A DNA stretch of 64,000 bases from Escherichia phage S127 BCL3, in sequence record OQ626344. One strand, written 5' to 3'. Positions 36,680 through 39,159 of the stretch are shown here, in pieces; within the stretch, counting starts at the first letter, position 1; every line of letters begins with the position of its first letter. The notes beneath the pieces are model-generated. The model had not been told where the DNA came from. It saw nothing but the letters and a program-made list of their open reading frames with translations, and did no database searches. The position numbers were made by a program, and so were the translations under genes.

Positions 36680-38662
36680 TTATTTGATGTTATTCTTTGT
36701 ATCAATCAGTTCACGGTATTCAATCATAGCAGGAGTGTCCCAATATTTCAAGCCTACATGCTTCAAAAGTGGATATTTCTTTTCCAATCTTGCAATATAG
36801 GCCTTCCCGCACTTAACCCGGTTGGCGATTAAGATTTTGGCACGATGATTTAGCTCACCGTACTTCCACGTGGTGCTACCTTCCCACTTGTGGAAATGTG
36901 GCCGATAACTTCCAAAATCCTGCATGGGGATAATTTTACCTAACTGTCTGTACAGGCTGTCATATGAAGTTTCATTTGCTGCGCGAGTTAGTAAGAATTT
37001 CCAAGCATCCTCTTTCAACAAATGTTCCACATTCTTCTCTGTAACATATTGGCAATCAGGATCAGTCCAAAGCAGACGAGATTCCGACACCAGGTACAGA
37101 TCTTCCCCTTCAGGAATCTGGAGTGCCGCACGCACACGGTCATAATCTTGCTGGTAGATGTTGCTCATCTGCCCTAGCCAACAACTTCCGCGTTGGATAT
37201 CCCCCTCATACGGTATGCAGTGCTTAATCTTCCTGAACTCTGCCTTAGTAATACGCTCACGCCGGAAGTAACCATCCTTCTCAAGTTTTTTAACCCAATA
37301 GCCTGGTTCGTAACGGGTTTTGGTTTCACCTTTCTTCGTAGGTCGGCGTGGAAGCTCCGATAACAATTTGACCGTATCTGCAAAAAACGGATGGTGTGCC
37401 GCCTCTTTAAACTCTTTCACCAGATCCGTGTTACGGCAATAGAAAACGTTGCGTCCGGTAATCTCGCTTAAGTAGTTACACTTATTCCGGTTATATTTGC
37501 CGTCTCCGTCGTTAAATACTAAATAAACTCCCCGTAAGAATTCTACCTTTCCGTAGCAGGCGTAACCTATGCGGCCTTTATTTAAGCCGCCAGCGAAGAT
37601 CTCGCAGTCCCCCAAATTTCCTAGCCCTGTTTCTTCCCAGCGGTCATACATAAAATTCTTACCGAAGATGTGCCCGAACACTCCACTGTTCTTCATCATC
37701 TCGCGTGCTTCTGAGGATGTTTTTGCTGTCTCCAGTTCTGCAACAACTTCTGCTCCACGAAGGCGAATGCCTTCTTTGACAAAAGCTTCCAAACGCTCTT
37801 GGAATCCACCATCGTCGTGACCTTCTATGGTCCATTCACGCCCTGGGTTAATATTGCAATCTCCGATAGGGATCTCTACACAAATTGCAGGATAATCTAT
37901 TAGTGTCTCCAGGAACTTAGAACGGTAAGGTTGGTGACCCATTACCACACGACTCTCGTCAGAGCTGGTATAACCCTTCAGGATGGTCATCTTCCAACCA
38001 TCTTTTTCATAATAATACTGCGCCTCTACTTTGTCTCCCTCCAGCATCTTGCTCGTCATCGGGTCGGTGACAGTGAACGGAAATTTTGCATAGCGCAGGC
38101 ATGATGCAATAGCGGTGCGATATTTCAGAACATGCTCTTTCTTAACATGAAACTGAACTTTTACCCCGTTGTGCTCTTCAGTCTTCCGCTCACGGATCTT
38201 GGTGACATTTGGGATACCCTGGTCCAAGAACAATAGGTATGTGCTTTCCACACCGTTGTGCACACTGATTACATCGAAAGTGTCCACCATACTGAACGGG
38301 GCCTTTGAACCAACACCTTTATTGCCTACCAGAGCGTTGCTGTTGCGCTTGGTTGACTCTCCGAGGTTCATGAAGGTGTTGCGGACCATCTCTTCTGACA
38401 TGCCTAATCCAACGTCCTGCACAAAGAAGTATGGTTCAAGGTCTGTAGGAGAGTGAATGATGATCGGAACATCACCCCGTCCAGACTCAACATGGGAGTC
38501 CACAGCATTGAAGATCGGTTCACGGCAGCTTGCCAGTACCTTATCTTCATAAATCCCTTTGATGATTAGCCCAAAAGTCTCTTTGTTCAGAGAAATTGAT
38601 CCCCTGGTTACCTCCATATTCCCAGTTAGCACCGCTTTAGTTTCATTGCTGTTTACAATCAT
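36680..38662 (-). CDS. rIIA: rIIA-like protein with GHKL/histidine-kinase-like ATPase domain
   Basis: N-box-like PIFNAVDS, G1-like VQDVGLGM, G2-like GNKGVGSKA; 660 aa; followed by rIIB-like gene. Confidence 0.65.
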   Translation of the reverse strand: MIVNSNETKAVLTGNMEVTRGSISLNKETFGLIIKGIYEDKVLASCREPIFNAVDSHVESGRGDVPIIIHSPTDLEPYFFVQDVGLGMSEEMVRNTFMNLGESTKRNSNALVGNKGVGSKAPFSMVDTFDVISVHNGVESTYLLFLDQGIPNVTKIRERKTEEHNGVKVQFHVKKEHVLKYRTAIASCLRYAKFPFTVTDPMTSKMLEGDKVEAQYYYEKDGWKMTILKGYTSSDESRVVMGHQPYRSKFLETLIDYPAICVEIPIGDCNINPGREWTIEGHDDGGFQERLEAFVKEGIRLRGAEVVAELETAKTSSEAREMMKNSGVFGHIFGKNFMYDRWEETGLGNLGDCEIFAGGLNKGRIGYACYGKVEFLRGVYLVFNDGDGKYNRNKCNYLSEITGRNVFYCRNTDLVKEFKEAAHHPFFADTVKLLSELPRRPTKKGETKTRYEPGYWVKKLEKDGYFRRERITKAEFRKIKHCIPYEGDIQRGSCWLGQMSNIYQQDYDRVRAALQIPEGEDLYLVSESRLLWTDPDCQYVTEKNVEHLLKEDAWKFLLTRAANETSYDSLYRQLGKIIPMQDFGSYRPHFHKWEGSTTWKYGELNHRAKILIANRVKCGKAYIARLEKKYPLLKHVGLKYWDTPAMIEYRELIDTKNNIK

Positions 38663-39159
38663 TTATTGCGCTCCTTGTAGTAGATATGACTCCCGAATTG
38701 AGCTGTCCTCTGCATCTTTTTTGCCCATTTCGGTCGTACTTTTGTTGTATGGTAGTGTGTTGCTCCGCCTGTTATATCCATAGCCATGTATGCAACATGG
38801 TTGTTATTATAGACCTTTAGAAGCATCTTTGCAAGACTTTTAGCGTGATCCCATGAATCTTTTTCTGTCACCTTAAAAGTTTTGCCGTGGTTTGTCCACG
38901 AAAACTGGTTAGGTTGGTAGACAATCTTTCTTATAGTGTCTGGGTATTTGGGGTGAGATTTCCTGTTTAGTGTGGCAAACCCAGATGCCAGCATACCCAT
39001 CGTGCCATCCCCTCTAGCCTCCCTGTAGATATTGCATGCCAGAATGTTTTCCTTAGTATCCGACGGCTTGCAGGTGTGATATACTTTTTGTTTTGGTGCT
39101 GCAACAACAGGCAGCGATAAAAATGCGCTCAAAATAATAGCAAAGATCTTAGTTTTCAC
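38659..39159 (-). CDS. secreted cell-wall hydrolase, SleB/CwlJ-like
   Basis: Signal-peptide-like N-terminus; motif NIYREARGDG ... TLNR. Confidence 0.6.
   Translation of the reverse strand: MKTKIFAIILSAFLSLPVVAAPKQKVYHTCKPSDTKENILACNIYREARGDGTMGMLASGFATLNRKSHPKYPDTIRKIVYQPNQFSWTNHGKTFKVTEKDSWDHAKSLAKMLLKVYNNNHVAYMAMDITGGATHYHTTKVRPKWAKKMQRTAQFGSHIYYKERNK

Follow-up and report, generated by a model that had tools for sequence, protein, structure and literature searches.

A predicted Sec-exported SleB/CwlJ-family wall hydrolase beside rIIA in an rV5-like Escherichia phage

Introduction

Why should many of the large virulent phages that infect Gram-negative bacteria retain, in the early/replication region, an exported wall hydrolase in addition to their endolysin? 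The question is raised by a gene of Escherichia phage S127 BCL3, of which a stretch of 64,000 nucleotides (record OQ626344; hereafter the window) was analysed. The gene (38659..39159, minus strand) is the orthologue of rV5 gp2 and of ECP26 QDB73441.1, and encodes a predicted single-domain peptidoglycan hydrolase of the SleB/CwlJ family (Pfam Hydrolase_2). A sequence-only reading of the window had proposed for it either the role of a secreted endolysin or a non-lytic one, such as superinfection exclusion or wall remodelling. The explanation favoured here, to which we give an even chance, is that of a soluble periplasmic enzyme of the lytic-transglycosylase type, made in low amounts from an early/middle transcription unit. 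It would be accessory to the lysis pathway formed by gp89, holin and spanins, and would act before the holin and independently of it.

The hydrolase has been annotated in rV5 since 2013 and is found in more than 1000 phage records. Its signal peptide, its spread across the Vequintavirinae, its place in the replication module and its distance from the lysis genes have all been remarked on in genome papers. The gene is thus not the oddity that the sequence-only reading took it for, but a conserved, annotated and already discussed feature of these phages. The CB7 paper reports SleB-like homologues carrying a signal peptide in all Vequintavirinae genera, states a predicted signal peptide for the Certrevirus protein CB7_83, and mentions, as data not shown, that recombinant expression of the latter is toxic in E. 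coli (PMC7344957). The P7_Pc paper repeats the signal-peptide point for P7_95. A Salmonella phage study noted that T5-like phages encode an 'endolysin' with a SleB domain at a distance from the holin, and raised the question of which of the two serves the phage. Among the lysins of Gram-negative phages, Hydrolase_2 is one of the dominant catalytic domains, and a signal peptide is predicted for 28% of these proteins. The literature yielded no functional study of any Hydrolase_2 protein encoded by such a phage, only annotation remarks, the toxicity mentioned above and the omics data on PAK_P3. The additions made here are small: a terminator before the ribosome-binding site combined with a weak start codon, an overlap of the stop codon with the rIIA start, a pair of cysteines, and the breadth of the pattern in which exported Hydrolase_2 proteins are encoded in early regions.

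Family, fold and active site

The precursor comprises 166 amino acids, with a computed mass of 19,041 Da and an isoelectric point (pI) of 10.0. The Sec-type N-terminus and the SleB-family pattern pointed out in the sequence-only reading are both present, the latter as N43-IYREARGDG-52 and T63-LNR-66. Chance cannot account for the family match: the profile of Pfam PF07486 (Hydrolase_2), whose cutoff is 27 bits, is matched with 70.4 bits over positions 2-100 of 100 (E 2.1e-19), and phrog_938, named 'endolysin', is matched with E 1.7e-27. Among proteins in the PDB, the SleB catalytic domains 4F55 and 4FET are matched by sequence (E 2.5e-6). The segment Y45-R-E47-A-R-G50 aligns to YGESRG of these two structures. 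Glu47 (GAG codon at 39019..39021, minus strand), which is aligned to the E of YGESRG, is the predicted catalytic general acid of a Y-x-E-[AS]-R-G motif. An AlphaFold2 model (mean predicted local distance difference test, pLDDT, 95.3; predicted template modelling score, pTM, 0.85) has the SleB catalytic-domain fold. Indeed, when the model was compared with the PDB by Foldseek, 4F55 and 4FET were the sole significant matches (probability 1.00; target-normalised TM score 0.75-0.79).

Conservation was counted on the top 150 of 11,332 cluster representatives retrieved at E<=0.001 by an exhaustive HMMER search, which was used in place of a word-indexed homologue search that gave 10 proteins only. 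Most of these 150 nearest representatives are single-domain proteins of 140-220 amino acids. Glu47 is present in 149 of them, the exception being a gap, and is invariant in alignment A1. Arg66 and His158 are found in all 150, and Tyr45, Arg49, Asn65, Gln85, Phe86 and Trp145 are nearly invariant. Comparison with a 94% identical relative, phage Gotham, reveals 8 synonymous and 2 non-synonymous differences. The ratio of non-synonymous to synonymous substitution rates (dN/dS) is 0.063, which indicates purifying selection, and the two residues that differ are both part of the predicted signal peptide.

Bacillus SleB (4F55, 4FET) and CwlJ share the catalytic-domain fold and the catalytic Glu motif with the window protein. 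Nevertheless, the latter is not an orthologue of spore SleB, because it lacks the N-terminal peptidoglycan-binding domain and lies far below the equivalog cutoff of TIGR02869 (48.3 bits against 236.5, over the C-terminal profile positions 83-201 only). It would also work in the context of a Gram-negative periplasm, where the substrate cannot be spore cortex. The title of entry 4FET describes SleB as a lytic transglycosylase.

The start codon is GTG. It is required, because the first in-frame ATG is codon 54 and lies past the catalytic motif. A Shine-Dalgarno sequence, GGAG (39165..39168, minus strand), is located 5 nucleotides upstream of it, and both elements are kept in phage Gotham. Over positions 36000-41000, the window shares 99.3% identity with Escherichia phage vB_EcoM-ECP26. 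An identity of 90% or more is reached by 121 records, almost exclusively from Vequintavirus, the rV5-like myophages of E. coli, and in these the open reading frame (ORF) is labelled 'cell wall hydrolase', 'SleB', 'CwlJ' or 'endolysin'. In rV5 itself, gene 2 (1980..2480, complement strand) is listed as 'cell wall hydrolase, PF07486 Hydrolase_2', with 166 amino acids, 19,052 Da and a pI of 10.0. Window positions are offset from rV5 coordinates by 36,679. When this offset is applied, the rV5 terminator t003 and promoter P010 coincide exactly with a hairpin at 39169..39195 and a promoter-like site at 43321..43349. rV5 gp2, ECP26 QDB73441.1 and NHEP1 XUK81897.1 are the same gene as the window hydrolase, with 95-99% protein identity and only a few substitutions, and gp2 is placed between gp3 and rIIA, with t003 upstream, as in the window.

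Sixteen records titled 'Campylobacter phage' (for example MG065662.1 and MG065635.1) also match positions 36000-41000 at a nucleotide identity of at least 90%. Campylobacter jejuni is the stated host in 15 of the 16, a label that looks doubtful. In the two that were inspected, A142 and C12, the hydrolase is ~98% identical to the window protein.

The export signal

The N-terminus of the hydrolase consists of a basic n-region, MKTK, a 12-residue hydrophobic h-region, IFAIILSAFLSL, and a c-region, PVVA/A (the slash marks the putative cleavage site), with V at -3 and A at -1. Substrates of signal peptidase I obey a rule of small residues at these two positions. The predicted Sec signal peptide would thus span residues 1-20 (39100..39159, minus strand), with cleavage at VVA/APKQK. 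Cleavage after Ala20 is likelier than after Ala21 because of Pro22. The predicted mature protein has ~146 amino acids, a mass of 16.9 kDa and a pI of 9.95.

An n-h-c segment is present in every homologue inspected from phages of Enterobacteriaceae, Stenotrophomonas and Vibrio, an n-h-c signal with a -3/-1 site is kept in most phage lineages examined, and a strongly hydrophobic N-terminal 10-mer is found in 89% of the 150 nearest representatives. The export signal is therefore a habit of the family and not peculiar to the window phage. Cys30 and Cys42 occur in 31 of these 150 proteins, always together (31/31). Their pairing fits a disulfide formed in an oxidising compartment such as the periplasm.

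The clear n-h-c signal with its -3/-1 site led to the rejection of a canonical cytoplasmic endolysin. A signal-anchor-release (SAR) endolysin was also rejected, on a heuristic assessment: the N-terminal segment is neither weakly hydrophobic nor rich in G, A and S, and a putative cleavage site is present. Residues 5-21, IFAIILSAFLSLPVVAA, have a mean Kyte-Doolittle value of 2.5 and contain 35% G/A/S/T, and the h-region is followed by a helix-breaking Pro and VVA/A. Nor was a SAR endolysin with an adjacent pinholin retained, given that the hydrolase stop overlaps the rIIA start and that no membrane segments were seen in the neighbouring ORFs. The features of a cleavable signal, as in a Sec-exported endolysin of the Lys44 type, do appear to fit the window hydrolase and are conserved. 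Lys44 of fOg44 and the SAR endolysins, P1 Lyz and phage 21 R, are muralytic enzymes that reach the wall through Sec without a holin hole. In this they would resemble the window protein. Each of them, however, is the only endolysin of its phage, is encoded in a lysis cassette and belongs to another enzyme family, whereas the window hydrolase is encoded in an early/replication unit and exists beside a separate endolysin.

Lysis genes elsewhere in the genome

The hydrolase is probably not the principal endolysin, because near-identical genomes carry the muralytic gp89/LysECP26 as well as Rz/Rz1 spanins beside the terminase. In ECP26, the lysozyme QDB73524.1 (LysECP26) is encoded at 87,949..88,419, ~70 kb from the hydrolase gene, and the i- and o-spanins (the Rz/Rz1 pair) at 77,080..77,762. 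Neither locus falls within the stretch that corresponds to the window. LysECP26 is a lysozyme-like protein of 156 amino acids, devoid of a signal or SAR domain; in purified form it lysed all 29 Gram-negative strains tried (PMC9728275). In the rV5 paper gp89 is called 'an obvious lysin' and gp129, of 78 amino acids with two transmembrane domains, is the holin candidate, while the lysis section does not discuss gp2 (PMC3606486). According to the CB7 paper, these phages have no classic lysis cassette and their spanins adjoin the terminase (PMC7344957). A different endolysin, a spanin pair and a holin candidate are thus available elsewhere in rV5-like genomes, dispersed rather than grouped in a cassette. 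The 'secreted endolysin' of the sequence-only reading is disfavoured as the main lysin, since genomes 99% identical to the window encode LysECP26/gp89 and the spanins separately.

The same reading had identified neither a holin nor a spanin next to the hydrolase, and this observation extends to the whole 64-kb window, in which no holin, spanin or other lysin was found. A tblastn search of the window with LysECP26 and both spanins found nothing, and no membrane segments were seen in the ORFs neighbouring the hydrolase. The sole nearby ORF with two hydrophobic segments runs antisense to the hydrolase/rIIA junction and was dismissed.

The LysECP26 gene is followed in ECP26 by a gene for a 68-residue 'putative membrane protein' (L003:38483-38689; phrog_4641, function unknown). 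Its only hydrophobic segment, at the N-terminus, ends in FMAAC, and is more suggestive of a signal or lipoprotein sequence than of a holin.

Gene order and expression signals

The rIIA homologue (36680..38662, minus strand; 660 amino acids; phrog_612, E 2e-123; HATPase_c_3) is immediately downstream of the hydrolase gene and shares its transcription unit. The MoxR-type ATPase (39599..40783) is upstream, with one ORF of 126 amino acids (39209..39589) between. Both neighbours had been named in the sequence-only reading. The hydrolase stop codon TGA (38661..38659) and the rIIA start codon ATG (38662..38660) overlap in an ATGA (38659..38662, minus strand), and the rIIA Shine-Dalgarno sequence, AAGGAG, sits within the 3' end of the hydrolase gene. 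The overlap implies that the two genes are co-transcribed. Translational coupling between them is probable.

The leftward unit of rV5 has been defined as genes 10-1-238-164 and starts at a bidirectional sigma-70-type promoter region beside an Srd-like anti-sigma gene (PMC3606486). The equivalent region of the window is at 43321..43391. It contains the site TTGACT-17-TATAGT (43321..43349, minus strand), the counterpart of P010, which would head the leftward early unit, from genes 10..3 through t003 and the hydrolase to the polymerase. Downstream of this promoter are seven small or unknown genes, the MoxR-type ATPase, the 126-residue ORF, the t003 hairpin and the hydrolase. The same strand continues with rIIA, rIIB, a PIF1/Dda-type helicase, methyltransferases, a primase-helicase and DNA polymerase.

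The t003 hairpin is of the intrinsic-terminator type, CCCCGC-TTCG-GCGGGG followed by ATTTTCTATTT (39169..39195, minus strand). Its deltaG is -16 kcal/mol (rV5 Table S4), and it is also annotated in Gotham. It abuts the ribosome-binding site of the hydrolase and is followed by GGAG-CTATT-GTG. No sigma-70-like promoter was found between t003 and the GTG, and there is no copy near the hydrolase of the rV5 late-promoter motif, TGGTAAAATA, whose count in the window is barely above chance. The hydrolase would therefore be transcribed by read-through of t003, together with the rII and replication genes.

A GC-rich hairpin with a T-run is set against the hydrolase ribosome-binding site in five lineages, namely those of the window, Mydovirus, Henunavirus, Certrevirus and Pakpunavirus, although the sequences are unrelated (in the relatives, L004 ~3960-4000; L005 ~3930-3970; L006 ~3880-3922; L009 ~2770-2823). 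GTG or TTG starts are used by the hydrolase gene in 6 of the 11 lineages inspected. The combination of a hairpin before the ribosome-binding site with a non-ATG start suggests selection for low output.

A sigma-70-like site, TTGCAA-17-TATAAT (10/12 matches; 38834..38806, minus strand), is found inside the hydrolase gene and could serve rIIA. It is a pattern match only and is not in the rV5 promoter list.

The rIIB homologue (35464..36669, minus strand; phrog_609, E 1.5e-61) has 401 amino acids by the start annotated in its relatives, NHEP1 and ECP26; the longest ORF reaches 36705. Its N-terminus contains two repeats of ~45 amino acids. When the first 124 amino acids were scanned alone, Pfam SPOR (PF05036) was matched over half of the profile with 22.7 bits, against a cutoff of 21 (E 1.2e-4; 36544..36648, minus strand). 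SPOR domains bind glycan strands stripped of peptides; the rIIB homologue has no export signal. In the GenBank record of phage YP-6 the rIIB homologue is labelled 'SPOR domain-containing protein'. The PIF1/Dda-like helicase is split into two coding sequences (CDS) in ECP26 (L002:12811-14179), whereas the window has an intact ORF of 456 amino acids (34094..35464).

Homologues in other phages

Homologues of the hydrolase were detected by tblastn in 1263 phage records, and twelve loci beyond the window were inspected. Among the sister genera within the Vequintavirinae, the order hydrolase-rIIA-rIIB-helicase is kept in Mydovirus and Henunavirus, while Certrevirus is without rIIA and rIIB and its hydrolase gene is followed by the helicase alone. 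The orthologues from these genera, among them the Certrevirus proteins CB7_83, CR3_087 and P7_95, are ~50% identical to the window protein and share its signal peptide, its Cys pair and the hairpin before the ribosome-binding site. The idea that gp3, a homologue of T5.083, and the hydrolase form a conserved pair was rejected: neither in the T5-like locus nor in any other lineage did a match to gp3 lie less than 3 kb from the hydrolase.

The sister genera differ from the window in having a small membrane ORF after or overlapping the hydrolase gene, where the window has none. In Henunavirus it is gp155 of Erwinia phage Hena1 (L005:4511-4744), a protein of 77 amino acids with 2-3 membrane segments, placed between the hydrolase and rIIA. 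In Mydovirus an unannotated hydrophobic ORF of 51 amino acids occupies the same position (Klebsiella phage VLCpiM5b, L004:4536-4691). The CB7 paper describes a class II holin candidate that overlaps the hydrolase gene in Certrevirus (PMC7344957). No homologue of Hena1 gp155 or of the Mydovirus ORF was found in the window or in ~100 kb of ECP26/NHEP1.

The 'endolysin' of VLCpiM5b is annotated from an internal ATG (CDS 4148-4531) and so loses its signal peptide along with the conserved N-terminal part. A TTG start at L004:4001 (4001-4531) restores both.

In more distant lineages the homologue stands alone among genes for nucleotide metabolism, ligase, nuclease or glycosyltransferase. This is the case in phi92-like and T5-like phages, Pakpunavirus, Nankokuvirus, Menderavirus, Plateaulakevirus and a Vibrio phage. 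The N-terminal hydrophobic segment looks cleavable in enterobacterial and Stenotrophomonas phages and more anchor-like in Pseudomonas phages. In the Aeromonas phage homologue it is weakly hydrophobic, and its nature is uncertain.

PAK_P3 gp151 and gp081 of Pakpunavirus Henu5 resemble the window hydrolase in that a Hydrolase_2 domain follows an N-terminal hydrophobic segment, the gene is part of a nucleic-acid-metabolism operon, and a hairpin is found just upstream. They differ from it in their low identity (~35%), their length (186-187 amino acids), the lack of rII neighbours and an N-terminus that resembles an uncleaved or SAR-like anchor. The PAK_P3 gene is in an operon with DNA ligase, dCMP deaminase and helicase. 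Published RNA sequencing shows that it is already transcribed at 3.5 min, with counts close to those found at 13 min (log2 fold change 0.62, p 0.28; Table S5). Compared with the upstream gp152, they are ~6-fold lower at 3.5 min, and the drop is ~2-fold at 13 min. The hairpin between gp152 and gp151 has no T-run (L016:7294-8410). The PAK_P3 authors proposed that gp151 could explain the accumulation of cell-wall precursors measured during infection.

Proposed role

According to the explanation favoured here, a 19-kDa precursor would be exported by Sec, signal peptidase I would remove ~20 residues at VVA/A, and a basic, soluble 17-kDa enzyme would be released into the periplasm. By analogy with SleB, Glu47 would be the single acid catalyst of a glycan-strand cleavage of the lytic-transglycosylase type. 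Expression would occur from the long leftward early/middle operon, driven by host-type promoters, along with rIIA/rIIB and the replication genes, and output would be throttled by the terminator hairpin abutting the ribosome-binding site and by the GTG start. The enzyme could then act on the wall from early/middle infection without any need for a holin, loosening or degrading it and so preparing or sharpening lysis. Lysis proper would be left to the separate cytoplasmic lysozyme gp89/LysECP26, the holin and the Rz/Rz1-type spanins encoded elsewhere. Early transcription of PAK_P3 gp151, its proposed link to cell-wall precursors and the toxicity of CB7_83 agree with this explanation, and the toxicity is also an indirect hint at muralytic activity. 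Of the two possibilities put forward in the sequence-only reading, a role outside canonical lysis, such as wall remodelling, is the better fit; nothing was found in specific support of superinfection exclusion.

Several points weigh against this explanation. For the window phage we infer the timing, export, cleavage and activity of gp2, and likewise its bond specificity, its low dosage and what the phage gains from it. Bacillus SleB reportedly requires muramic-delta-lactam, a compound not found in E. coli, so activity on ordinary peptidoglycan is not guaranteed. A soluble periplasmic muramidase active from early infection should also be risky for the phage. The argument for a low dose draws on sequence signals alone, and t003 may be weak, because essential replication genes need its read-through. 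The PAK_P3 homologue, from which the transcript data come, is only ~35% identical and has an N-terminus more like a membrane anchor than a cleavable signal. Finally, the small membrane proteins encoded between hydrolase and rIIA in Henunavirus and Mydovirus, and the Certrevirus holin candidate placed there by the CB7 authors, fit a true lysis role equally well.

This last point leads to the main rival, which we consider unlikely. It holds that the hydrolase is a second endolysin of the Sec-exported type, redundant with gp89, that is exported all along, is restrained by the energised membrane or by a tether, and is set free only once a holin or pinholin collapses the membrane potential, as with fOg44 Lys44 or the SAR endolysins. 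The 'endolysin' label of the PHROG family and of many GenBank records agrees with it, as do the ORFs with 1-3 transmembrane domains directly downstream in Henunavirus and Mydovirus, the class II holin candidate that overlaps the gene in Certrevirus, the toxicity of CB7_83 expression, the proximity of the lysis-timing genes rIIA and rIIB, and the prevalence of Hydrolase_2 and of signal peptides among the lysins of Gram-negative phages. However, in the window the hydrolase stop overlaps the rIIA start and no membrane ORF is beside it, and no homologue of Hena1 gp155 was found in the ~100 kb of rV5-like genome searched. The strongly hydrophobic h-region and the putative cleavage site predict soluble release instead of a SAR tether, the gene is in an early unit with no late-promoter motif nearby, and a cytoplasmic endolysin of proven activity is available.

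It seems improbable that the hydrolase has a non-lytic function in the periplasm, in competition or in defence. The protein would block superinfection, alter the wall against incoming tail lysozymes or DNA-entry devices, or counter an envelope defence, perhaps together with rIIA/rIIB. T4 exclusion proteins are likewise exported to the envelope early in infection. The position in the early unit, the stop codon overlapping the rIIA start and the hydrolase-rII-helicase synteny kept among three further Vequintavirinae genera (rIIA/rIIB being missing in Certrevirus) are all compatible with such a role. Against it, no data of any kind were found that link Hydrolase_2 proteins to exclusion. Moreover, conservation extends to the catalytic Glu and all the rest of the active-site set, so the protein should be an enzyme that cuts the wall and not a blocker. 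In T5-like, phi92-like, PAK_P3-like and Menderavirus phages the homologues lack rII genes as neighbours, and the rII link is thus lineage-specific.

That the protein is catalytically silent, or a dispensable relic, is very improbable. The spore-cortex specificity of SleB might not transfer to E. coli peptidoglycan, yet the dN/dS of 0.063 with both amino-acid changes confined to the signal peptide, the invariant active-site residues, and the retention of the gene in 121 records (nearly all Vequintavirus) and in 1263 phage records overall speak for a protein that is maintained.

Phages commonly carry a second peptidoglycan hydrolase for entry, but a virion-associated lysin piercing the wall at DNA entry is hardly credible here, given the predicted cleavable export signal, the position of the gene outside the structural module in an early/replication unit, the absence of gp2 from the virion proteins that the rV5 text names, the lack of any 'hydrolase' entry in the mass spectrometry table, and the assignment of that role by the CB7 paper to a baseplate gp25-like protein (PMC7344957).

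Implications

For enzybiotic work, it should be noted that automatic pipelines call the hydrolase an 'endolysin', although it is another protein whose endolysin activity has been proven in these phages. The finding also bears on the control of lysis timing and of envelope integrity in phages other than T4 that possess rIIA and rIIB. A speculative and rather improbable extension of the favoured explanation is that the exported hydrolase and rIIA/rIIB form an envelope module. An early periplasmic lytic transglycosylase, kept under-expressed by the terminator against its ribosome-binding site, by its weak start codon and by translation coupled to rIIA, would erode the wall throughout infection, while the rII proteins, or the small membrane protein of the sister genera, would keep the membrane intact, and together they would set the timing of lysis or the outcome of superinfection. 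If true, this would constitute a third role for phage wall hydrolases, beside entry and final lysis, and would provide the rII proteins with a concrete partner.

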